The notes below the pieces were generated by a model. That model was given only the letters and a program-made list of their open reading frames with translations, searched no databases and had not been told where the DNA came from. Source: Bdellovibrionales bacterium (GTDB lineage Bacteria; Bdellovibrionota; Bdellovibrionia; Bdellovibrionales; Bdellovibrionaceae). Taken from it: a stretch of DNA of 64,000 nucleotides. The DNA lies in assembly GCA_038323665.1 (NCBI GenBank), contig JBBQHD010000003.1:6575-70574 (forward strand). Reading direction: 5' to 3'. The position numbers and the translations under genes were made by a program. This document shows, one piece after another, positions 4,522-63,042 of the stretch. Numbering within the stretch: the first letter of the stretch is position 1; every line of letters starts with the position of its first letter.

Positions 4522-4729
4522 AAAAAAACCTCTATCTAAAAATAAAACTTCAAAAAATATATTACTATCAATAGAAAATCCCAGCAAATTTAAGAAGAAA
4601 AAATAACCCATAATGAAAAAAGACTCAAATCCGTCAAAAAGTTAGACAGAAAAAAATTTCATTCACAGAAAAACAAAATGCCGCTGCCATCGAATCCAAA
4701 TAAAAAGATCAGCAATGTAAATTTATAAT

Positions 4730-4956
4730 TTTCGGGTTTTAAGTTAGAGTTTACTAATTAGTATTTTTAATTCTTAAGTCTGCACCGCTAGGGCTGGGCG
4801 TTTTCCGCAAATACCTCAAAAAAGCGGGACGCGTCCGCCGTAACCGGCGGTTTTTGGAGGGCAGGAGCCCGCGTTTTGCGGAAAGCGCCCAGCCCTAGCG
4901 GTGCAGACTTAAGAATTAAAAATACTAATTAGTAAACTCTAACTTAAAACCCGAAA
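4730..4956. repeat. long-hairpin element, copy 1 (90-nt conserved core at 4799-4888, inverted relative to copies 2 and 3; ~70-bp perfect inverted arms)
   Basis: Left arm tttcgggttttaagttagag...gctagggctgggcg is the exact reverse complement of the right arm. The core matches the cores at 27384-27473 and 44726-44815. Confidence 0.9.
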
Positions 4957-4980
4957 CTCCAAATTATATTGCAGATCTTT

Positions 4981-5388
4981 TTACTTGGGTTCGATGATCA
5001 GGCGGATGCCTTCGACTTTGCGGATGCGAAACAACTGCCCCTTACGAATCGGCAGTTTGCTGAAGACTTTCCAGCGAGCACCTTTGTAAATCATATGCGA
5101 TTCAATTTCTGCTTCCATGTCTTTATCGCTGACGATGCCTTCGGGAAATTCTTCGGCCGAAGTTTTGCCGTCGGGTAAAATAAATCGGTTTAAAAAGAAA
5201 ACTCCCAAAATGGAAAACAAACTGAATAAGGTGATTTGGCCGGTCAGGGAAACAAAACCCATTGAGCTAGAAATGGCGGTCAGCAATGCGGCCAGGCCCA
5301 AAAACAGCAAATGCAAATTGCCGCCGAATGCTTCTGCGGAAATCATTGAAATGCCGATGGTAAGCCAAAGCCAAATACTCCAGTCCAT
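4981..5388 (-). CDS. NfeD-family membrane protein
   Basis: Hydrophobic N-terminal half plus a C-terminal OB-like tail (YKGARWKVFSKLPIRKGQLFRIRKVEGIRLIIEP), as is typical of NfeD. Confidence 0.65.
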   Translation of the reverse strand: MDWSIWLWLTIGISMISAEAFGGNLHLLFLGLAALLTAISSSMGFVSLTGQITLFSLFSILGVFFLNRFILPDGKTSAEEFPEGIVSDKDMEAEIESHMIYKGARWKVFSKLPIRKGQLFRIRKVEGIRLIIEPK

Positions 5389-8315: not shown

Positions 8316-8349
8316 TTTATTTAAATTACTTCCGCGTCGGAAGTGATCG
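8316..8349. repeat. 34-bp direct repeat, left copy (tttatttaaattacttccgcgtcggaagtgatcg)
   Basis: Identical to 9486-9519. Similarity continues imperfectly for about 18 bp further. Contains the small hairpin acttccg-cgt-cggaagt. Confidence 0.9.
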
Positions 8350-8605
8350 CATTTAATTCGACTTGAGGATAAAACGCTACCAAGTCCCCTTCTTCGTAAC
8401 GCCGCAGCATGAATAGCTATTTGCCTACGGAAGCATCTCTGCAAAGTTCCAATAGAGCCAACCTCCACTCTGGGAATCATCGGGATTTTGATTGAGCCAA
8501 TTTATTAGGTTTTGTTGATTTCCGATACTTTGGGTTTTCGTTAAAAATGGCGGGGATACTTCCCACTTTTACTAGTTTTTTCTCACAAGATCTGTAAGTT
8601 TAAAG

Positions 8606-9485: not shown

Positions 9486-9519
9486 TTTATTTAAATTACT
9501 TCCGCGTCGGAAGTGATCG
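9486..9519. repeat. 34-bp direct repeat, right copy
   Basis: Identical to 8316-8349. Confidence 0.9.
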
Positions 9520-9661
9520 TGTTTTATTCGATTTGATAGTTGAAGTGAATTCCGAGCGCAAACAGACAGGCGAAAATAAACTTTTCACCTGTCAGAAATG
9601 ACGATTTATTAGATTTAAACTTAATTAGTTTAAATCTAAATAAGCATATTATAATTAAAAA

Positions 9662-19574: not shown

Positions 19575-20581
19575 ATGGAATTATTGCGAGAGTCTAAAGT
19601 GAAGTCATCGATAGATAGAATAATCTTAGGAATTCAGGCTGAAGCTGTTTCTGAGAATAATTATAACAAAGAAATTTTAAAGACAGCTAACGTCGATAGC
19701 AATCCAGATTCCCTTATCTCTGAAATCAGAAAAATTGCCAAAGCAGAACAAGGATTTACTTTGCGAGTGATCGAACTGATTTCCCAAGTTGATCAGCGCA
19801 AACTGTTTTATCGTCTTGGATTTCCTAGTTTGTATGATTTCGTAACTCAAGATTTGGGTTACGAGCCTGCGTCGGCAATGCGCCGGATTCAAGCTGCCAG
19901 ACTGTTGCAGGATTTGCCGGAAGTGAAAGAAAAAATCGAAGCCAAGGTTTTGAATCTGACGGTGATTTCGAAGGCGCAAAGTTATTTTCGTAAGAAAGAT
20001 CTGACCATCGAAAACAAACGCGAAATTTTAAAATCTTTGGAACATCAATCTGCTCGCGAAGCTGAGTTGACCTTGGTGAAACTAGACCCCTTGTGCAAAT
20101 TCCCGCGCAGGAAAAGCAAAGACCGCTTTCTGAAGAATTTGTGGAACATAAGTTTGTCATGAATGCTGAAACTCAGAAAAAATTGGATCAAATCAAGCTT
20201 TGGATGTCGCACCAAAACCCAGATTTATCGACCGCAAAGTTATTTGAAATTTTGGTGGATCAGGAATTTAAAAAACTTTCGAAACAGCGGGAATCTAAAA
20301 CTACTTCAGCGCCAGAGCCGGCCATTCCTTCGGCCGAAACAAATCTTACCTCCGCTGCGGAGGTAAAAACCGCAAGTCGGTTTATTTCTGCAGAAACCAA
20401 GCGCGCGGTTTATCAGCGGGACCAAGGCTGTTGCCAATACAGGAATTCACAGACTGGCGAACAATGCCGATCCAAATACCAAATTCAGTTTGATCATATC
20501 ATTCGATTTCGTGACGGTGGATCTTGTGACAAAGAAAATATCCGATTGATGTGTGCTCGGCACAATCGATTGCGGGGCTAG
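19575..20581 (+). pseudogene. HNH endonuclease (DUF222-like N-domain), divergent copy C, frameshifted near 20090-20110
   Basis: Two overlapping ORFs (19575..20162 and 20093..20581) together align end to end with the intact paralogue at 32200..33411. The C terminus carries the HNH motif CCQYRNSQTGEQCRSKYQIQFDHIIRFRDGG...NIRLMCARHN. Confidence 0.7.
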
Positions 20582-24014: not shown

Positions 24015-26300
24015 TCAGTTTAATTCCAGATCGTTGTTAGTATTTTTTTCGGCTTTGCGATAGTATTTTTCCAGTTTCTTGCCGTTGGCATCTTTGCCAC
24101 CTTGGTCTTTGATAAAGTCCACGCGATCTTGCAGCCGCTCGGCCAGCACTGATTTTTGATCTTCAGTATTACGAATAATTTTCGGTGTCAGGAATACGAC
24201 CAAATTCTTTTTTTCTTTGCTAGACTGTTTAGATTTGAATAACCAACCAATCAATGGAATGTCCCCAAGCAGTGGAACTTTGGTAATGGTTTCTGTTTCT
24301 GAATCTTGCATCAAGCCCCCCAGAACTGCGGTGTCGCCACTGCGAACCAAAATATTAGTTTTGATTCGGCGTTGGCCCAACTGTTGCGAGTTATCATTGA
24401 TGTTTTTCGAAGCGCCGGAATTGTTTTCCACTTGCTTAACAACCTGAGTTACGTCCATGCGCACAGATTCTGATTTAGGTGAAATAAATGGTTTGATGGT
24501 CAACTTGATAGTCGCATCATCAAAGGTTGGAGTAAAAGTGCTATTGCCTTGTGCGTCCTTACTAGTTGCAACAGAGGTTGCGACTTTACTGCCCACTTCA
24601 ATTTCTGCTTCTTGATTGTCCATTGCTACAAGTGAAGGCGTCGACAAAATATTTGTTTTAGCAACTTGTTTTAAAAGTTGTAAAAATCCCAATAAACTGG
24701 GGACTGCAACCGGAGGTTTACCGGCTTCCAAAGCCACATTGACCGTATTGCTTGAAGCAAATCCCAAGACCGCCCCGTTGGTGGTTCCCGTCGGAGAAAT
24801 TAAATCTTTGATGTCTAATCCCCCATTGAACCCTGTTTTTCCAAAACCAGTTGGACCGAATTGATAATAGCCGATCCCGAAATTATTCGTGTCTTTGGCG
24901 GTTAATTCTAAAATCACAGCCTCGACATAAACTTGATCGCGGGGAATATCGATTTTGCTTAAGATCGTCATGACTTGTTCGTAATCTGGTTTGCTGGCGA
25001 CAATCACCAGCGAATTTGTCGCTTTGTCGGCAGTGATTTTTATATCATTGCCGAAAATATCCGATGTGCTGGAGGCAATTCCTGCGGCAGTTGGATTGAT
25101 AAATGGACTGCCCGGAGCATTCGTGGGCGGGGCTGCTCCACCAGGTTTTCCTGCAGCGTCTTTGGTCACACTTTGTAAAACTGCAGCGATTTTGTCGGCT
25201 TCACCATAGCGAACATAGTAAACAAAAACTCCGCCATTGTCTTCGGCGCGGACTTTAAAATCCAATTGGCCAATTAATTTTTTGACACGTTCAATGCCGG
25301 CCTTGTTTCCCACCACAATAATGGAATTGGTGCGGTCATCAGGAAGTGCGGTGAAATATGCCCCGCCGCCAGAAGATCCCGACCGACTGTTGTTGCTGCT
25401 GCCGAATCGGGGAACGCCTGCAGTAAATCCACCTTGCGGAGAATTCGAGGATTTTTGTCCCTTATTCACAATTTTATCAATTAAATCTGCCAAATCTTTC
25501 GATTTTGCAAAACGCACATGAATCACTTCCATTTGGTCTTCAAATCCCGGCACATCCAACTGCGCAATGATTTTCATCATGCGATCCACGCTGGAACCCA
25601 AATCGGAAATGATCAGCGAATTCGTGGGCCCGTAAATGGTCAAATCCCCATCGCGAGTTAAAACATTGCGCAAATCTTTTTGCACCACTTCGGCAGAAAT
25701 ATGTTTCAAATGCAAAATGCGGGTGATGGCTTGGTCATCGTTGGGATAATAATTGCCGGAATAAATTTCGATATTATCCTTTAACGCAATCTTAGTAGAT
25801 TTAATTTTTAAAAATCCACCACTGGGCACAACTGTAAAACCATTGATAGCCAATGCTGACAAGAAGGCCTTGTAAGCTTCGGCAACGGTGATGCGGCTGG
25901 GGGCGATGATGGTGATATGACCTTTGACGTTTTGATCCAGAATAAAATTTTTGCCAGTCAATTCACTGATGGTTTTAACAATGTCGTTGATATCTGCATT
26001 GGGAAAATCAAAAGATTCAATGGTTTCAGGGAAATTCTTGCTGTTGATTTCTTCGATGCTGGCTTGGCTGAATTTTTCTCGCTGAGTTTTCGACAAACCT
26101 TTGCCGGCAGATTTATCCGCGCCTCTACCGTTGCGCACAGATGTTTCGCCAAAACTATTTCCCCCGCCGATCCCTGGCGGCGCATTTTGCGGTGGTGGTG
26201 GCGGGACATCAAAGTCATCATCTTGTGCGAAAACTTGCGAACTGCACAGACAAAACAAAACTATGTTTAATTTTTTAAACAGATTCTTTCCGTTAATCAT
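24015..26300 (-). CDS. gspD: type II secretion secretin GspD
   Basis: N0-N3 domains plus a C-terminal secretin domain (...VPLLGDIPLIGWLFKS...). Start set at the ATG at 26300, which is preceded by AAGGAAGG. Confidence 0.9.
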   Translation of the reverse strand: MINGKNLFKKLNIVLFCLCSSQVFAQDDDFDVPPPPPQNAPPGIGGGNSFGETSVRNGRGADKSAGKGLSKTQREKFSQASIEEINSKNFPETIESFDFPNADINDIVKTISELTGKNFILDQNVKGHITIIAPSRITVAEAYKAFLSALAINGFTVVPSGGFLKIKSTKIALKDNIEIYSGNYYPNDDQAITRILHLKHISAEVVQKDLRNVLTRDGDLTIYGPTNSLIISDLGSSVDRMMKIIAQLDVPGFEDQMEVIHVRFAKSKDLADLIDKIVNKGQKSSNSPQGGFTAGVPRFGSSNNSRSGSSGGGAYFTALPDDRTNSIIVVGNKAGIERVKKLIGQLDFKVRAEDNGGVFVYYVRYGEADKIAAVLQSVTKDAAGKPGGAAPPTNAPGSPFINPTAAGIASSTSDIFGNDIKITADKATNSLVIVASKPDYEQVMTILSKIDIPRDQVYVEAVILELTAKDTNNFGIGYYQFGPTGFGKTGFNGGLDIKDLISPTGTTNGAVLGFASSNTVNVALEAGKPPVAVPSLLGFLQLLKQVAKTNILSTPSLVAMDNQEAEIEVGSKVATSVATSKDAQGNSTFTPTFDDATIKLTIKPFISPKSESVRMDVTQVVKQVENNSGASKNINDNSQQLGQRRIKTNILVRSGDTAVLGGLMQDSETETITKVPLLGDIPLIGWLFKSKQSSKEKKNLVVFLTPKIIRNTEDQKSVLAERLQDRVDFIKDQGGKDANGKKLEKYYRKAEKNTNNDLELN

Positions 26301-26324
26301 TTGAACCTTCCTTGGTTGCAATGG

Positions 26325-27215
26325 CTATCTGACGTTATAATTTTTCGTTGCAGTCTGGCCGTCTCGGTTAATACTTAAACTAATTTTATCAGCACTTTTT
26401 AAGGCGTTGAATAATTCCATCGCCTGTTGCGGACTGGTGACGGGTGTGCCGTTGACCCCACGAATGGAATCGCCGACTTTTAATCCCAATTTTTCATAGA
26501 TACTTCCGGGTTGAATGTCGGCCATTCGGTAACCGATCACATTGCCGCCGGGATCTCGTTCGGGGATGACTCGGGCCTGCATGATGACGTCGGAAATATT
26601 GGCGGTGTATTTTAATAAATCATCGCGTTTGATTTCAAAATCATTTTCAGAAATTTGTTTTACTTCTGATTTCGGGCTGGATCCACCCACGGTTTTTAAA
26701 GTCAGTTTCGAATCGTTTTTCATTTCAATAAATTCCAAGGCGCCGGAACTTAAATTGCGAATGAAAACTTTGAATCGTTCAATTTTTTCCACTTGCGCTA
26801 GTCCATCAATTTCTTGACCCACATGATAAGCCAAAGATTTATTTTTTCCTTTTAAATCAATCGAAGCGATGGATTTTTCAGTGGAGCTGTGAACCAAAGT
26901 TCCCAGCAAGGCCAAAGGCAATTGCGTCGGAACCGGAGGAGTTTCTTTGCGTTTTTTTCGCAGTTCAGGTCGATTGGCCAAGGGCTCGGGAATTTTTCCA
27001 TCCAGAGCAAAAAGATTTCGCGAAACAATTTTTTGTGTCATGGCGGTGTCGACATTGACGCCGTTGATATTGGGTTTATTTTTTGTAACGGGTGCTGCGG
27101 CCGGCAACATGGATCCGCGGGTTTGGATGATCAGCAGATCTGCCAAAAAATATCCGCCTGCGACGACGAAAATTGTGGCGATGATGCGGGTGGGTTTTGT
27201 GCTGGTGATGGCCAT
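26325..27215 (-). CDS. gspC: type II secretion protein GspC (TM plus HR plus PDZ domain)
   Basis: N-terminal TM segment and a C-terminal PDZ-like region (GYRMADIQPGSIYEKLGLKVGDSIRGVNG). First gene of the cluster. Confidence 0.75.
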   Translation of the reverse strand: MAITSTKPTRIIATIFVVAGGYFLADLLIIQTRGSMLPAAAPVTKNKPNINGVNVDTAMTQKIVSRNLFALDGKIPEPLANRPELRKKRKETPPVPTQLPLALLGTLVHSSTEKSIASIDLKGKNKSLAYHVGQEIDGLAQVEKIERFKVFIRNLSSGALEFIEMKNDSKLTLKTVGGSSPKSEVKQISENDFEIKRDDLLKYTANISDVIMQARVIPERDPGGNVIGYRMADIQPGSIYEKLGLKVGDSIRGVNGTPVTSPQQAMELFNALKSADKISLSINRDGQTATKNYNVR

Positions 27216-27293
27216 ACTTTAAACTACCAGAGGTCAGTGGGGGTTGAGAAACTTGTTCGCGGATTGACTAGGACTTCGGTCGAGCCCTTCCGT

Positions 27294-27564
27294 TTTCCCC
27301 CAAGTTTTGGCAGTTTTTTCGGATTTTGAAAAATTCCGATTCTAAATAAGCAGTTCAATTTTAGTTTACTCAAATGCGGTAGAGCGCTTTCCGCAAAACG
27401 CGGGCTCCTGCCCTCCAACGACCGCCCCGTAGGGCGGACGCCTCCGGCTTCGTTGAGGTATTTGCGGAAAACGTTCTACCGCATTTGAGTAAACTAAAAT
27501 TGAACTGCTTATTTAGAATCGGAATTTTTCAAAAGTCAGAAATACTGCCAAGACTTGGGGGAAA
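27294..27564. repeat. long-hairpin element, copy 2 (core 27384-27473; perfect inner arms 27324-27382 / 27476-27534; degenerate outer arms)
   Basis: The inner 59-bp arms are exact reverse complements. The outer ~30 bp still pair, with a few mismatches (cccccaagtTttggcagtT... versus ...). The core aligns without gaps to the other two copies. Confidence 0.9.
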
Positions 27565-27655
27565 TTTGCTTTGCTTGCCAAGTTTGGGTTTGCTCGGCAA
27601 CATAAGATTTCTTGGTTTTGGCTTTTTGGTCGTTTTACTTTTTTAGGAGTCGCAT

Positions 27656-28084
27656 ATGGGAAAAAATTTTTTGGCTTTGGTTTTTTTGGTTGGAGTTTCT
27701 TCTTCGGTTGTTTTTGCTAAGCGGGCGGATTCTGCTCGGGGGATTGCTCCGGTGGTTGATTTTGTTAATTTGAAAGATGGGGATTCGGTTAAGTCTCCTT
27801 TCAAAGTTAAGATGGCTGTGAATGGGATGAAGGTTCGTCCTGCTGGTGAAGACGCCGAGGATAAAACTTCGGGGCATCATCATTTGATTATCGATGGAAC
27901 TTCGGTTCCTTCGGGGCAAGTAATTCCTGCCGATGATACGCATTTGCATTATGGTAAGGCGCAGACTGAAACTAAAATTAATTTAAGCCCTGGTAAGCAT
28001 ACGCTGACTTTGCAATTTGCGGACGGCGCGCATCGTTCTTACGGCGGGCAATTTAGCAAAACTATTACTGTAAATGTAAAATAA
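27656..28084 (+). CDS. DUF4399-domain secreted protein
   Basis: Signal peptide plus the motifs GHHHLIIDG, HLHYGKAQTE and GKHTLTLQFADGAHRSY. AGGAG RBS upstream. Confidence 0.7.
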   Translation: MGKNFLALVFLVGVSSSVVFAKRADSARGIAPVVDFVNLKDGDSVKSPFKVKMAVNGMKVRPAGEDAEDKTSGHHHLIIDGTSVPSGQVIPADDTHLHYGKAQTETKINLSPGKHTLTLQFADGAHRSYGGQFSKTITVNVK

Positions 28085-30640: not shown

Positions 30641-30800
30641 TTCATGGGACGCGCGTTATCGGATTTTTTGCGATCTTTAAAAAAGAAAAAACTTCGCCTC
30701 AGATCGAACACAGCGCGAGCATTACCGGCGCCGGCAGTAAAATTCGCTGCGCTTTTCCAAGCTTGCGGGAACCAGACGATCTAGCTATCTTATCTGCGAA

Positions 30801-32180: not shown

Positions 32181-32199
32181 ACTTAAGCAAACAGACCAT

Positions 32200-33411
32200 C
32201 TAACCACGATCGCGATTGTGCTTCCCGCAAAGCAGCCGCAAATTTTCCACCGAGTTTTCACCCAAATGGCGAAATGGATGAACATGATCAAATTGAATTT
32301 GATAACGAGATTCGCATTTTTTCTGAGTGCCAGGATCAACAAACTGGCAACAGCCTTGGTCGCGCTGCCAAACAAGTTTTTTTACCGATGCCGATATATA
32401 ACGAGATCGTTTTTGGCTGGGTTTATTGTGGGCGTGTCTTTGTAAGGTGATGGGACTAAGTTTTTCTTTTGAATCTTCGCTGAGAGGTTCGGCGCCGGTA
32501 ATGCTCGCATCCTGTTCGATTTGAGAAGGATCAGCCGATTTATTTTGAAGGGACTTATTTTGCGGAGATTGATCTTTAATGGATTTATCTTGGCCGGGTT
32601 TATCTTGAACCGATTTCTTTTTAGCTAACTGTCCATGCAGTTTTTCAACCATAACTTTGAAAAACTGCGCCTGGGTCATATCAGGATTCTGGTGCGACAT
32701 CCAAAGTTTCAGTTCATCCATTTTTTCTTTTGTCTCGTTATCTATTACAAAGCGAAGTTCAATTAAGTTTTCAGATAGGATTTTTTCTTGTTCTTTGGAT
32801 TTCAAACAAAGTTCAGGTGCAAGTTTAAATAATTCTTTCTCGGCTTCGCGGGTTGACTTATTTTCCAGTTTTTTAAAAAGCTCGGTTTTTTCTGCAATCG
32901 AGATCTTCTTACCAGAATCGCTAGCTTTCTTATTTAAGAAATTCTGACCCTGACTGACCACCGATAAACTTAAAGAACGATCCGCAATTTTCTTCCTTAA
33001 TTCAGGAATTTCAGAAATCGCACGAGCTGCTTGAATTCTGCGCATGGCCGAAGACGGCTCATAGCCTAAATCTTTGGTTACAAAATCGAACAGCGAACTA
33101 AATCCTAATTTCAGAAAAATCTTTCTTCGGTTGATTTCAGCAATCAGCTCGATCACTTGCAAAGTTAGATCTTGTTCGTTTTTGGCAGCTTTCCTGATTT
33201 CCGCGATCAGCGCCCCGTTATCCAGGGATTTGATAGTTTCATCTTTCGACAAAGATTTGGTTTCAATTGAGATGCCTTTGTTTGAGGGGTTTTTAACTTC
33301 AGGAGATTTTTTTTCGAGTGAAATACTTTCGCGCGAAGTATTTCGAACTTCAGATAGTTCAGAACAAAATTCCAATTGAACTTCTTTCGAGTAATCATAT
33401 TCTTCCAGCAC
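32200..33411 (-). CDS. HNH endonuclease with DUF222-like N-domain, intact copy A (403 aa)
   Basis: DUF222-like core (LGFSSLFDFVTKDLGYEPSSAMRRIQAARAI) and a C-terminal HNH motif (CCQFVDPGTQKKCESRYQIQFDHVHPFRHLGENSVENLRLLCGKHN). GTG start. Confidence 0.8.
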   Translation of the reverse strand: MLEEYDYSKEVQLEFCSELSEVRNTSRESISLEKKSPEVKNPSNKGISIETKSLSKDETIKSLDNGALIAEIRKAAKNEQDLTLQVIELIAEINRRKIFLKLGFSSLFDFVTKDLGYEPSSAMRRIQAARAISEIPELRKKIADRSLSLSVVSQGQNFLNKKASDSGKKISIAEKTELFKKLENKSTREAEKELFKLAPELCLKSKEQEKILSENLIELRFVIDNETKEKMDELKLWMSHQNPDMTQAQFFKVMVEKLHGQLAKKKSVQDKPGQDKSIKDQSPQNKSLQNKSADPSQIEQDASITGAEPLSEDSKEKLSPITLQRHAHNKPSQKRSRYISASVKKLVWQRDQGCCQFVDPGTQKKCESRYQIQFDHVHPFRHLGENSVENLRLLCGKHNRDRG

Positions 33412-33655
33412 ACATCCTCATTTCCACTTCAAGATCGAAGTAGAAAAAACTTATCATAGGTTTTTAAAATGCAAATTTCGCGTTATTCAAGAATAACAAA
33501 TGCGCAAAGCAAAGCCTGGCCTAAACGCACGAATCGGGCCATTGGCGTAGGCTTATAAAAAATTAGAAAAAACAGCTTTCCTGAAAAAAATAATTTAAAT
33601 TAGGCGTATTTAATCGATAAGAAAACTCGTCAATATTTTTTATTTTTTAACGCCA
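33412..33655 (-). repeat. conserved ~240-bp leader of the HNH gene family (copy A)
   Basis: Block-wise similarity to 46265-46505, and more distantly to 19300-19574. Confidence 0.8.
33607..33633 (-). promoter_or_regulatory. candidate sigma70-type promoter of HNH copy A
   Basis: On the minus strand: TTGACG, 15 nt, TAAATA. Both hexamers and the spacing are conserved in copy B. Confidence 0.3.
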
Positions 33656-33828
33656 GACGCGAAACCAAAGGGAACGGCGTAATTTAAAGCTAAACCCATA
33701 CCCGCAAACTATATCGCGCTGGGTATCTCGACAAAGACAAATCCAAAAGTTTGATATGGAACCATTGCGATCGGCAGAAGTGCCTCTATTGCTTGATGAA
33801 AATAATGGGCACGAAGGCCCACAACACA

Positions 33829-43448: not shown

Positions 43449-44639
43449 ATGAGCCAACAATCGAAACAGCTGCATCTTGGAAAATTTGAAATGACGCAAA
43501 AGTGGCGCACGCTTGCATTCGGATTGATGGCCATCGGTTTGCTGACTTTTGTGATCGGTTTAATGCGCAATCAAGAACGTATGTGGCCAGCTTATTTAAA
43601 TGCATTTTTCTTTTTTAGTTGTTTGGGTTTGGGCGGGTTATTTTTTACCGCGCTTCAACATGTGACGAACGCTGGTTGGTCGGTCACTATACGCAGACTT
43701 TCGGAAGGAATGGCCGCATTTATTCCATTAATTTTTATTGGTGGGTTGGTTTTATTATTCGGTTTTAGTCGATTGTATCCTTGGGCCGACCCCAATGTAA
43801 CTGACCCCGTAGTTGTGGCAAAACACGCCTATTTAAATCCAACAGCCTTTGTCATCCGCTTAATTATTTTTTGCGGCGGCTGGTTTTTATTTAAAAAACT
43901 CATCGTCGGTCATTCCGTCAAACAAGATGTGGATGGCAACGAAGAACACACAACGAAAAATGTGCCAGTTTCGATTGGTTTTATTTTATTTTTCGGGCTG
44001 TCGTTTTCGCTTTTCAGCGTCGATCTTTTAATGAGCTTACAGCCCTCATGGTACAGCACCATTTTTGGAATTTATTGTTTTTCAGGTTTGTTTCAAGCAT
44101 CGCTGGCTGTAATTGCTTTGATCCTAGTTTACTTCAAGCGCTCGGGTTTAGTGGCAGGTTATATCACCGACGAACATATGCACGATGTGGCGAAATTTAT
44201 GAAAGCCTTTACAGTTTTCTGGGCCTATATCGCCTTTTCACAATTTATGTTGATCTGGTATGCAAACATTCCCGAAGAAACCGAATATTATATTATGCGT
44301 TCGCAAGGCGGCTGGATGGCCGTGTCTTTAGGACTGTTGATCTTCCGATTTATTGTGCCCTTTGTGGCGCTGTTACCGCGCGGATTAAAACGAAACGAAA
44401 ATCACGTCATCTTGGTTTCATGTTTAATCTTAGTGATGCAATACGTAGATATTTGGTGGATGGTTTACCCAAATTTCTTCGAAGGCCAAATGACTTTCGG
44501 CCTTTGGGAAGTGGGAATCTGGGCACTGTTCGCCGGAATTTTCCTATGGACCTTGGGAACTTTCTTAAGCAAGCACTCGCTGATTCCAATTAAGGATCCG
44601 CGGATACAAGAAGCTTTGAATCATCACGTTACGTATTAA
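43449..44639 (+). CDS. actF: alternative complex III subunit ActF (ActC-related membrane subunit)
   Basis: Polytopic 396-aa protein. Last gene of the operon. Confidence 0.78.
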   Translation: MSQQSKQLHLGKFEMTQKWRTLAFGLMAIGLLTFVIGLMRNQERMWPAYLNAFFFFSCLGLGGLFFTALQHVTNAGWSVTIRRLSEGMAAFIPLIFIGGLVLLFGFSRLYPWADPNVTDPVVVAKHAYLNPTAFVIRLIIFCGGWFLFKKLIVGHSVKQDVDGNEEHTTKNVPVSIGFILFFGLSFSLFSVDLLMSLQPSWYSTIFGIYCFSGLFQASLAVIALILVYFKRSGLVAGYITDEHMHDVAKFMKAFTVFWAYIAFSQFMLIWYANIPEETEYYIMRSQGGWMAVSLGLLIFRFIVPFVALLPRGLKRNENHVILVSCLILVMQYVDIWWMVYPNFFEGQMTFGLWEVGIWALFAGIFLWTLGTFLSKHSLIPIKDPRIQEALNHHVTY

Positions 44640-44640
44640 T

Positions 44641-44901
44641 AATTCCGTTCAGTTAAGGGATTTAAATTACAAGTCAGAATTAAATTAATTTTAAATTTAC
44701 AAGTAAAGGGCCCAAATCCGACAGGGCGCTTTACACAAAACGCGGGCTCCTGCCCTCCAACGACCGCCGAATACGGCGGACGCGTCCCGCTTCGTTGAGG
44801 TATTTGCGGAAAACGCCCTATCGGATTTGGGCCCTTTACTTGTAAATTTAAAATTAATTTAATTCTGACTTGTAAGTTAAATCCCTTAACTGAACGGAAT
44901 T
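44641..44901. repeat. long-hairpin element, copy 3 (core 44726-44815; ~85-bp arms with 2 mismatches)
   Basis: aattccgttcagttaagggattt...cccaaatccgacaggg is the reverse complement of ccctatcggatttggg...cttaactgaacggaatt. The core matches copies 1 and 2. The element begins 2 nt after the actF stop. Confidence 0.9.
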
Positions 44902-44980
44902 AAACGTATTGAATCACGGAGCAACGTATCTACGATCTGTTAAATATTCAGCGGTAAATTATTTATTATGGTGTAGCCAC

Positions 44981-46264
44981 TTAATCACGATCTCGGTTGT
45001 GCTTCCCGCAAAGCAAGCGCAAATTTTCCACCGAGTTTTCACCCAGATGTCGAAACGCTTGGACGTGGTCGAATTGAATTTGGTAACGAGATTCACATTT
45101 TTTCTGAGTGTCGGGATCGATAAACTGACAGCAACCTTGGTCGCGTTACCAAACCAGCTTTTTTACCGAAGCCGAGACATAGCGAGATCGCTTTTGGCCG
45201 GGTTTATTTTGGGCGTGTCTTTGCGCGGCGATGGGACTTGGGTTTTCTTTTGGATTTTTGGAAAGAGGTTCGGCGCAGGTAATGCTCGCATCCTGTTCGA
45301 CTTGAGAAGCATCATTCGATTTAACTTGGTTGGATTTCTTTTGCGGAGATTTATCTTTAATGGATTTATCTTGGGCGCAACTATCTTGAACCGATTTCTT
45401 TTTAGCTAACTGCGCATGTAGTTTTTCAACCATTACTTTAAAAAACTGACCCTGGGTCATATCGGGGTTTTGGTGCGACATCCAAAGTTTCAGTTCATCC
45501 ATTTTTTCTTTGGTCTCGGAATCTATTACAAAACGAAGTTCCGTTAAATTTTCAGATAGGACTTTTTCTTGTTCCTTGAATTTTAAACAAAGCTCGGGTG
45601 CAAGTTTAAATAATTCTTTCTCGGCTTCGCGGGTGGATTTATTTTCCAGTTTTTTAAAAAGCTCGGTTTTTTCCGCAATCGAGATCTTCTTGCCAGAATC
45701 ACTGGCTTTTTTATTTAAGAAATTCTGACCTTGCGAGACAACCGATAAGCTTAAAGACTTATCCGCAATTTTTTCCCTTAACTCAGGAATTTCAGAAATC
45801 GCACGAGCTGCCTGGATTCTGCGCATGGCCGAAGACGGTTCATATCCCAAATCTTTGGTTACAAAATCAAATAATGAACTAAAGCCAAGTTTTAGAAAAA
45901 TCTTTCTTAGGTTGATTTCAGCAATCAGCTCGATCACTTGCAAGGTTAGATCCTGTTCGTTTTTTGCAGCGTTCCTGATTTCAGCGACAAGTGCGCTGTT
46001 ATCCAGGAATTTGATAGCTTCGTCTTTCGACAAAGGTTTCGCTTCAGCAAAGGATTTATTTTCAACAAAAAATTCTGTTTCCGCGAAGGGCATCATTTCC
46101 GCAAAGAATTTCTTTTCGCGCGAGCTGCTTTTGCTTGAAGAATTTCCTACTTCAAGCAGCTTCTCCTCTGTCGAAATACTTGCACGCCCAGTATTCCCAA
46201 CTTCACGATCGACAGGCCAAAACTCTAACTGAACTTCCTTCGAGTAATCATACTCATCCAGCAC
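44981..46264 (-). pseudogene. HNH endonuclease (DUF222-like), copy B, with an in-frame TAA at 45146-45148 that cuts off the HNH domain
   Basis: The 372-codon ORF ends ...SASVKKLVW(stop). The same frame continues RDQGCCQFIDPDTQKKCESRYQIQFDHV...LLCGKHNRDRD to a stop at 44981-44983. The intact paralogue has CAG where this copy has TAA. Confidence 0.75.
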
Positions 46265-46505
46265 ACATCCTCATTTCTACTTCGATTTAAGAAGTAGAAA
46301 AAACTTATCACAGGTTTTAAAAATGCAATTTTCAGGTTTCCTCAGATCGCGAATGCGCAAATTAAACTTCAGTCTAAACGCACGAATTGGACCACCAACG
46401 AAAGCTTATGAAAAATTAGAAAAAACATCTTCCCAGTCAGAAATAATTTAAATTAGGCGTATTTAATCACTCAGAAAACTCGTCAATAATTTTAATTTAT
46501 TAACG
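46265..46505 (-). repeat. conserved ~240-bp leader of the HNH gene family (copy B)
   Basis: Block-wise similarity to 33412-33655. Confidence 0.8.
46460..46486 (-). promoter_or_regulatory. candidate sigma70-type promoter of HNH copy B
   Basis: Same TTGACG, 15 nt, TAAATA arrangement as copy A. Confidence 0.3.
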
Positions 46506-46870
46506 CAAGATGCGATCCCAAAACGAACGACGCAGTTTTATATTCACGTCAGCTTCCCACACAAAGCAGCCGCAAATTTTCCACCGAGTGATCGCCCAAC
46601 TGCCGAAACGGGTAAACATGATCAAATTGAATTTGGTAACAAGGCCCGTATTTTTTCCGCGTGCCGGGATCCACGAACCGGCAGCAGCCCCGGTCCCGCG
46701 GCCAAACAAGTTTTCCATAAGCGAAACCGATATATAGCGAGATCGCTTTGGGTTTGTTGCCGGCCTGCCTTTGTAAGTTGTTGGGGCTTGGATTTTCTTT
46801 GTGAATCTTCGAAAAGAGGTTCGGCGCAGACAGTGCTCGCATTGTGTTTGAATTGGGAATCAAGCCGCAA
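46500..46870 (-). pseudogene. 3'-terminal fragment of a further HNH endonuclease copy (frameshifted)
   Basis: Two short ORFs in different frames (46622..46903 and 46549..46863) align to the last ~120 residues of the family: ...CAEPLFEDS... then GKLVWPRDRGCCRFVDPGTRKKYGPCYQIQFDHVYPFRQLGDHSVENLRLLC. Confidence 0.7.
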
Positions 46871-56414: not shown

Positions 56415-56900
56415 ATGAAACGCAAATCACAGCAAGAACTGATTCCCAGAAAATGGCATGAAGGAGTTTCCTTTGGTGGAGATTTAAACCCAGTTGGTAA
56501 ACGCAAAGAAAAAAGACCCTTGTCTATGTCAAAACCAATGCATTTAGTTTTAAAAGCTAATTTTAAAGTATTTTTATCTAAAAAATCTGGAATTCACTTG
56601 GCTATAGCTCGAATGGGGCAAAGGCACGGAATCGAGCTGAAAGATTTTGTTATTCACTCGAATCATCTGCATTTACTTATTAAGGTATCTTCAAGAGAAA
56701 ATTATCATAAATTTATTAGGGGATTAAGCTCTGCCATTTCAGCTTTATTTAAATTATCAGATAAATTATGGCTTAAACTGCCTTGGACAAGAATATTGAC
56801 TTCGAAAAGAGAGTTTTTAAATATCCGAAACTACTTTGCAAAGAATCTCTTAGAAGTAGAAATCATTGAATGGATGAATAGGGATTGGAATACAGGATAA
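56415..56900 (+). CDS. Y1 HUH transposase, IS200/RAYT-like (solitary)
   Basis: HUH motif in VIHSNHLHLLIKV and a C-terminal Tyr motif NIRNYFAKN. ATG at 56415 is preceded by AGGAAGGAAAAG. Confidence 0.65.
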   Translation: MKRKSQQELIPRKWHEGVSFGGDLNPVGKRKEKRPLSMSKPMHLVLKANFKVFLSKKSGIHLAIARMGQRHGIELKDFVIHSNHLHLLIKVSSRENYHKFIRGLSSAISALFKLSDKLWLKLPWTRILTSKREFLNIRNYFAKNLLEVEIIEWMNRDWNTG

Positions 56901-57054
56901 GATTGGAAGAAAAACCCAAAACAGAATCGGATCGGTCCGGAAGGCCGACCGAACAGGGAGTATGAGGGCGTGCAGCCCTCATCAGGCAGGAGGCCTCGCC
57001 CAGTTCTGTAAAAGTTTTCAAGCTTAGACTTGAACTGCATTATGAAACCAGTGT

Positions 57055-62965: not shown

Positions 62966-63042
62966 CGGCGTGTAGCGCAGCCTGGTAGCGCACTTGCTTG
63001 GGGTGCAAGGGGTCGTGGGTTCAAATCCCGCCACGCCGACCA
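62966..63042 (+). tRNA. tRNA-Pro (anticodon GGG), CCA encoded
   Basis: Manual cloverleaf: acceptor CGGCGTG/CACGCCG, D arm GCGC-AGCCTGGTA-GCGC, anticodon arm CTTGC-TTGGGGT-GCAAG, T arm GTGGG-TTCAAAT-CCCGC, then A-CCA. Confidence 0.9.

Follow-up and report, generated by a model that had tools for sequence, protein, structure and literature searches.

What is the long hairpin at positions 27294–27564, and do the paired substitutions between its copies mean that its fold is functional? An inverted-repeat search of the window (the whole 64-kb stretch of DNA analysed here) places the repeat where an earlier note on this DNA had put it and recovers two further copies, at 4730–4956, with the core reversed, and at 44640–44902. 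The arms of copy 1 (4730–4811/4875–4956; core on the minus strand) are 82 nt long and 99% complementary, those of copy 2 (27294–27397/27461–27564; strand unassigned) are 104 nt long and 92% complementary, and those of copy 3 (44640–44739/44803–44902; plus strand) are 100 nt long and 95% complementary, with a spacer between the arms of exactly 63 nt in each of the three. All three copies in the 64 kb are intergenic, and their gene contexts are co-directional, divergent and convergent. Copy 2 folds as one long hairpin both as RNA (−184 kcal/mol) and as single-stranded DNA (ssDNA; −124 kcal/mol), in each case far beyond chance (z = −24). Together, the three copies define a palindromic repeat that is non-coding, belongs to an uncultured Bdellovibrio-like bacterium and has not been described before.

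The source of the sequence is a metagenome-assembled genome and palindromes are a known class of artefact, which is the case for regarding the element as a fold-back chimera of assembly or amplification. We find this explanation barely credible, as the three loci share one non-palindromic core and carry different arms, and their flanks run into genes that are syntenic with those of relatives. Furthermore, an independent short-read assembly of the same sample (Logan, SRR19962015) contains a contig that is identical to window positions 25734–27353 and branches where the perfect repeat begins, stopping exactly k−1 (30 nt) into the perfect left arm of copy 2. A k-mer graph is expected to break at a genuine inverted repeat, and the match together with the break in the perfect arm indicates that the palindrome is not the artefact of one assembler. 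Contig breaks that lie k−1 into a perfect arm could also serve to count palindromic elements in fragmented assemblies.

The neighbours of copy 2 are as previously described: it lies between two divergent genes, gspC (26325–27215, minus strand; NCBIfam GspC_delta, 188 bits) and a DUF4399 gene (27656–28084, plus strand; Pfam, 116 bits). The host belongs to an uncultured Bdellovibrionota lineage, and its GspC, a member of the delta-type family, has a closest match that is ~50% identical among 5.8 billion proteins. In eight contigs from relatives, which carry six related GspC homologues, gspC is preceded by 159–248 nt and then by a divergent gene of ~158 aa, and none of the eight contigs has a long inverted repeat or a covariance-model match at this locus. 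The window has 440 nt upstream of gspC, which is the sum of 169 nt and the 271-nt element, and the genes around copies 2 and 3 otherwise stand in the same order as in relatives. Given its absence in relatives and this arithmetic, the element looks like a lineage-specific insertion, arms included. Copy 2 sits in the gspC promoter region and the other two copies lie at the 3′ ends of genes, the left arm of copy 3 starting at the base directly after the stop codon of the open reading frame (ORF) at 43449–44639. A 7-nt direct repeat, ACGTATT, is found at 44631–44637 and 44904–44910 on either side of copy 3 and is either a target-site duplication or chance; nothing comparable is found at copies 1 and 2.

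The arms of copy 2 show two layers. The inner left arm (27324–27383) pairs with 27475–27534 through 60 consecutive Watson–Crick pairs, one more than the 59 first reported, with no G·U among them, while the outer left arm (27294–27323, pairing with 27535–27564) has decayed and contains 6 ungapped mismatches in 30 nt or, aligned with gaps, 3 mismatches and 2 indels. Two further mismatches, absent from the earlier note, adjoin the core at 27384 and 27387, and beyond 27294 and 27564 no further inverted repeat is detectable. Mismatches and indels concentrate in the outer arm. The perfect runs of the three copies measure 71, 60 and 26+55 bp (~212 bp in total) with zero G·U pairs, and the arms of copy 1 are made up of 71+10 perfect pairs. 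The age layering proposed for copy 2 is therefore present, and the data are consistent with the accompanying suggestion that renewal of the duplex starts at the centre and moves outwards. A weak sigma-70-like match, TTGGCA-16-AAAAAT (9/12), also occurs on each arm of copy 2, at 27307–27334 on the plus strand and 27551–27524 on the minus strand. Because the arms are palindromic, each match points inward through the core; copies 1 and 3 have no such match.

At the tip of the arms lies a core of 90 nt (27384–27473, plus strand) that is 89–91% identical between copies and GC-rich, with a GC content of ~0.6 compared to 0.21–0.34 in the arms. It consists of inverted 16-mers, GCGCTTTCCGCAAAAC and TTTGCGGAAAACG, which are ~75 nt apart, continue the arm helix and close three small hairpins. 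The first of these, P2 (27402–27413, plus strand; GGGC-TCCT-GCCC), is invariant. Helix P3 (27416–27455, plus strand), in which 27416–27421 pairs with 27450–27455, encloses the other two, the apical hairpin P3a (27422–27437, plus strand; CCGCCC-CGTA-GGGCGG) and the mini-hairpin P3b (27440–27448, plus strand), which reads GCC-TCC-GGC here and GCG-TCC-CGC in copies 1 and 3. Within the inner stem, the C at 27387 stands opposite A27471, a mismatch that is conserved in all three copies and corresponds, on the opposite strand, to G·U or G·T.

Aligning the copies bears out most of the paired changes that had been reported in this core. Two adjacent pairs of P3 covary, with CG on both sides in copies 2 and 3 and a change of CG to AA on one side of copy 1 matched by CG to TT on the other (alignment columns 48–49 and 80–81), and in copy 2 the closing pair of P3a is reversed compared with the other two copies (columns 56 and 61), with a loop that varies. 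The claim that the arm helix extends into the core holds for copies 1 and 2 and fails for copy 3 (TTTACACAAA), where two changes are uncompensated. A fourth compensatory pair, which had been missed, converts GCG/CGC to GCC/GGC in the 3-bp stem of P3b (columns 71 and 75). All eight substituted columns in the internal helices of the core are thus compensated, as four pairs, with no one-sided change and no break; two more changes fall in a loop, and the two in the inner stem of copy 3 are uncompensated. In the 114-column alignment, which holds three sequences only, 12 of 45 pairs change on both sides (0/500 shuffles as good); for pairs in the arms, palindrome homogenisation is a confounder. Controls with slid partners lower the pairing from 98% to 42–48%. 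Both strands fold comparably, with consensus energies of −68.8 kcal/mol for the plus strand and −73.6 kcal/mol for the slightly better minus strand, and the core folded by itself has z scores of −3.1 to −4.1 (copies 1 and 2) and −1.5 to −1.7 (copy 3).

It had been argued that such covariation is expected of a functional RNA or ssDNA fold and not of neutral sequence. As an argument this does not carry, since one arm of a DNA palindrome can be recopied from the other and paired changes alone do not show a functional RNA. A template switch between the arms of an imperfect inverted repeat makes the two alike and can lengthen them (PMC7202029, PMC8604942, PMC13100816), so that compensatory changes arise without selection on the fold. 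Compensatory changes have also already been described in REPIN hairpins (PMC3116915).

The arms of the element carry several marks of this kind. They are nearly identical within each copy yet copy-specific: outside the core, similarity between copies is not significant in local alignment, and collinear similarity is weak (copies 1/3, p ~0.001–0.003; copies 1/2, p ~0.014–0.05; copies 2/3, none). An extra CTGGG in copy 1 is mirrored on both of its arms, and the few transition mismatches are wobbles on one strand or the other with no consistent strand preference. Selection at the RNA level tolerates G·U pairs and bulges, and it would not keep a stem so clean amid near-complete sequence turnover. 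The perfect runs free of G·U, the copy-specific arms and the mirrored indels instead point to recopying at the DNA level, and the covariation in the element can be explained, mostly or wholly, by such recopying without selection on the fold.

Recopying can also extend a palindrome, and copy 1 appears to be an example. Outside its arms is a degenerate outer repeat in which a left block (4688–4723) pairs with a right block (4961–4996) over 36 nt at 86% identity, with a score of 47 against a null of 14 ± 2.7; a short unmatched junction separates it from the arms. The right block holds the stop and last codons of nfeD (ORF 4981–5388, minus strand). Because the NfeD Pfam match of this ORF extends through the whole end of the profile (57/57, residue 134 of 135), the right block is native gene DNA and the left block its decaying inverted duplicate. 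The copy 1 palindrome has thus grown into its flank, where the 3′ end of nfeD is now duplicated. In the other two copies the palindrome does not extend past the ends given above. The idea that the arms are wholly derived from the flanks was rejected in its strong form, as copies 1 and 3 are weakly collinear and the 271 nt of copy 2 look like a net insertion; a flank origin is retained for the outer extension of copy 1 alone.

This pattern also bears on the possibility that the element is a classical cut-and-paste MITE, with the long arms serving as terminal inverted repeats for a DDE transposase. There are several intergenic copies, the orthologous site in relatives is empty, the ACGTATT repeat flanks copy 3, and the arms have weak collinear similarity, including a TTTCGGRTTTT near the ends that is common to copies 1 and 2. 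However, the termini are the least conserved part of the element, copies 1 and 2 are without a target-site duplication, and the outer arm of copy 1 originates in the flanking gene. Neither a DDE transposase nor an occurrence of the inner 17-mer outside the three copies is present in the window, which also has no terminal inverted repeats that are conserved and shared with an autonomous IS. Taken together, these points make a MITE of the classical kind very unlikely.

The explanation that we favour, and hold at even confidence, is that copy 2 is a lineage-specific, non-coding interspersed palindromic repeat that is REPIN- or MITE-like in kind and unusual in architecture, with the 90-nt core at the tip of an AT-rich inverted repeat of 80–105 bp. 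During replication or repair a strand would fold back at the central hairpin and one arm would be recopied from the other, by quasipalindrome template switching or palindrome gene conversion, keeping the arms identical and occasionally lengthening them. Tracts that begin at the centre would renew the inner arm more often than the outer, which would leave perfect inner and decayed outer arms as the observed age layers. Every substitution or indel would be mirrored onto both arms by the same process, which would also account, in large part or entirely, for the compensatory changes of the core. The constrained part would be the core itself, including the C·A mismatch (G·T on the other strand), as a structure read on one folded strand, as ssDNA or RNA, by a factor that spreads or uses the element.

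The contrast in rates between core and arms is in line with this division of roles. By rough counts from the alignments, the core has undergone ~5–6 events per 90 nt between copies, a mirrored pair being counted as one event, while the arms of copies 1 and 3 differ at ~40% of positions in addition to indels, so that the core has evolved several-fold more slowly than the arms. A slower core, together with a mismatch kept in all copies, suggests that the core is probably under constraint as a recognition module, one strand of it being read in folded form as ssDNA or RNA. Additionally, the 3-bp stem of P3b is too short for easy template switching, and its covarying pair argues for constraint. Conserved stem irregularities are strand-specific determinants for readers of folded ssDNA, such as TnpAREP, IS200/IS605 TnpA, IntI and relaxases (PMC8266576).

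Several points weigh against our explanation. Its evolutionary statements draw on three sequences, which makes the rate comparisons and the covariation anecdotal, and the template switching is inferred from sequence alone. No enzyme that could mobilise the element is linked to it, the copies have neither conserved terminal repeats nor a consistent target-site duplication, and it is the centre that is conserved where in REPINs and MITEs it is the ends. The paired change in the 3-bp stem and the surviving mismatch are also more readily explained by selection on a fold than by template switching alone.

Selection on a fold is what would be expected of a structured non-coding RNA, either a gene or a cis-regulatory element, in which the apical multi-hairpin is functional and the stem simply pairs; the stem might then be a substrate of RNase III, or a hairpin that serves protection or processing where genes end. 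We take this alternative seriously but consider it unlikely. A core conserved far more than the arms agrees with it, as does the compensation of four out of four substituted pairs in the internal helices, one of them in the 3-bp stem. The minus strand, which folds slightly better, has a U·G in place of the mismatch and an additional conserved U·G in P3, and the core alone folds well in copies 1 and 2. In copy 3, however, the closing stem has its two uncompensated changes and the core alone is unremarkable, and at copy 1 the better-folding strand is antisense to both neighbours. The ~212 bp of perfect runs without G·U are difficult to reconcile with an RNA, no promoter or terminator within the element is conserved across copies, and no homologue is present in the relatives sampled. 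Nor does the element match an Rfam family: at the gathering score the whole window has a single hit, a tRNA at 62966–63039, and a permissive scan of 27200–27660 returns sub-threshold matches, the best being mir-147 (35/57 bits) and Pedo-repair (19/150 bits), both on the hairpin stem. These scans gave the element no known ribozyme, riboswitch or tRNA-like identity.

No further copy was found in any collection searched or in sequenced relatives. An exact 19-mer of the core gives four chance hits in GTDB genomes with no second motif; a core 21-mer has no hits in JGI metagenomes, and an 18-mer has 48, all of them chance matches in coding sequences. Two k-mers searched in IMG/VR return chance matches alone, blastn against phages and plasmids returns no match, and neither do the five core open reading frames when concatenated as a protein query, a search aimed at spurious ORFs annotated across other copies. 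The covariance model recovers the three copies alone, with no remnants, and as model R1 finds no match in 15 loci from relatives and the same sample. Spacer-like phage matches in the arms were considered and rejected, as no hit falls below E = 0.3.

If the core is read as folded ssDNA, a REPIN-type element mobilised by a Y1/HUH enzyme (RAYT or IS200/IS605-like) comes into view, in which the core is the replicative unit, the 16-mers are its ends and the long arms are secondary. The window does contain a Y1/HUH transposase-like ORF (56415–56900, plus strand; Pfam Y1_Tnp, 26.5 bits), which is divergent and whose HUH motif aligns to the ISDra2 TnpA structure. The dimensions of the core are like those of a REPIN, with its inverted 16-mers 71 bp apart and compensatory changes in the spacer (PMC3116915), and the stem mismatch recalls the bulge needed by TnpAREP (PMC8266576). 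REP hairpins have a GTAG or CGTC tetranucleotide at their foot. CGTC precedes P3a on the minus strand in 3/3 copies and may be compared to CGTC-tagged REPs (PMC3733652), although so short a motif, shared by three related sequences, says little. These likenesses do not extend to the enzyme or to the arrangement of the conserved parts, and we judge this mode of mobilisation to be quite improbable. The best NCBIfam match of the ORF, REP-associated tyrosine transposase, scores 23.5 bits against a cut-off of 80, and the flanks of the ORF contain neither the core nor anything similar to it (upstream p = 0.28, downstream p = 0.06; covariance model E > 1). Within the element, the core halves are not inverted copies of one REP, and the spacer is as conserved as the 16-mers.

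The comparison with REPINs holds for the general type, as REPs and REPINs with their RAYTs are likewise short, non-coding, extragenic and multi-copy, form hairpins in ssDNA or RNA, and commonly carry compensatory changes (PMC3116915). The two differ in which part is conserved: in REPINs the REP arms are conserved and the tip is variable, whereas this element has a conserved tip and copy-specific arms of about 100 bp, absent from REPINs and three to four times longer than the REP arms. REPINs also number in the tens to hundreds of extragenic copies per genome; the 64 kb analysed here contain three copies of the element. The inner 16-mers are the sole REPIN-like feature that we found in place of conserved inverted REP arms around a less conserved tip, and the window holds no cognate RAYT flanked by the same REPs. 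PATEs derived from IS200/IS605 are also similar, being small, with two GC-rich hairpins of the subterminal type, no terminal repeats and mobilisation as ssDNA by Y1 enzymes, but they lack a long perfect flanking palindrome, and no element with matching ends was found. More generally, no transposase carrying the ends of the element was found in the window. Beside the Y1 ORF there is no TnpB and no adjoining element core, and the ORF is followed by a unique GC-rich multi-hairpin of 90 nt at 56920–57010 (ssDNA fold z = −4.6).

The presence of inverted repeats around a short segment, with copy 1 in the opposite orientation and copies 1 and 3 at gene 3′ ends, might alternatively indicate a regulatory DNA device, such as an inverton, a bidirectional terminator or an attC-like recombination site. 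Sites of the attC type conserve structure over sequence, are recognised as a folded single strand and have unpaired bases that set the choice of strand, and P3 recalls their R″/R′ in CCTC(C)AAC...GTTGAGG. In attC sites, however, the outer R″/R′ are conserved and the centre is variable, and they occur in cassette arrays and not scattered between housekeeping genes. Of the R″ RYYYAAC and R′ GTTRRRY motifs, copy 1 has TTTTGAGG for CGTTGAGG, with TTT in place of the GTT needed at the crossover point, and no IntI or other integrase is found in the window. An inverton does not fit either, as a 63-bp spacer with 100-bp arms is not a known inverton geometry and the spacer is without a promoter match. 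For a terminator, the hairpin would be expected to lead into a U-tract, and in none of the copies are the arms followed by a T-run; copy 2, moreover, lies between divergent genes. Pfam and NCBIfam scans of the window ORFs detect no DDE transposase, integrase or tyrosine or serine recombinase. A device of any of these types seems to us highly improbable.

Other families of bacterial repeats share the overall form of the element. ERIC/IRU, the Correia elements of Neisseria and the RPE of Rickettsia are 100–300 bp in length, have dyad symmetry, and are scattered between genes in any orientation. These families are conserved along their whole length and especially in their terminal repeats. Here, in contrast, the termini are the least conserved part and no target-site duplication is consistent between copies. 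Quasipalindrome template switching matches the arms in their mirrored changes, indels included, in the lack of wobble pairs and in the extension of the repeat into a flank (PMC7202029, PMC8604942, PMC13100816); it is, however, a mutational process and not an element family, its documented repeats are shorter, and it is silent on the conservation of the core and the spread of copies. On this balance of features we would classify the element as a variant of the bacterial interspersed palindromic repeats, set apart by a structured tip and long, apparently self-homogenising arms.

If our favoured reading of a recopied palindrome is true, genome scans should be read with caution: compensatory substitutions within a palindrome do not count as evidence that an RNA is functional, since whatever changes on one arm is transferred to the other by template switching. 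The element would then be a natural bacterial palindrome, nucleated by a conserved structured core, that is kept perfect and extended into neighbouring genes; it has duplicated the nfeD stop region and sits in the gspC promoter region. The pattern of a conserved centre with free ends differs from that of REP/REPIN, ERIC and Correia elements, and hints at a different recognition logic.

A more active version of this process, which we regard as a long shot, is that the element builds its own palindrome. A nuclease or transposase of this genome, acting in trans, would recognise one folded strand of the core, and nicking or stalling there would start fold-back synthesis in which the neighbouring DNA is duplicated in inverted orientation. 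The reader may be the Y1/HUH protein or a member of an HNH family with at least 23 paralogs; both links to the element are leads only. If true, long hairpins would be made and kept over gene ends and promoters, with possible regulation through dsRNA or cruciforms, and the element would represent a mode of inverted duplication driven by mobile elements that has not been described in bacteria.

The HNH-endonuclease family comprises proteins of ~400 aa with a C-terminal HNH. The window contains two full copies of its 1.5-kb repeat unit (32196–33740 and 44977–46600), a partial copy (46562–46862) and one more HNH ORF (20093–20581), the units being 84–88% identical, and at least 22 paralogs with identities of 52–87% are found on other contigs of the same assembly. 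Each unit begins its ORF only after ~330 nt of non-coding DNA that is also conserved, and one unit lies between ResB and a cytochrome c assembly gene, where it is an insertion relative to relatives. Copy 3 ends 74 nt from a gene of this family, and copies 1 and 2 adjoin none. A comparison of the core to the ends of the HNH repeat units and to the Y1 ORF flanks gave no significant similarity. Separately, a 51-nt repeat that is 92% identical between 8316–8366 and 9486–9536, with a hairpin ACTTCCG-CGT-CGGAAGT, resembles a segment inside the HNH genes, and a 36-nt inverted fragment of the same HNH-like segment lies at 30698–30733, downstream of an FGase gene.
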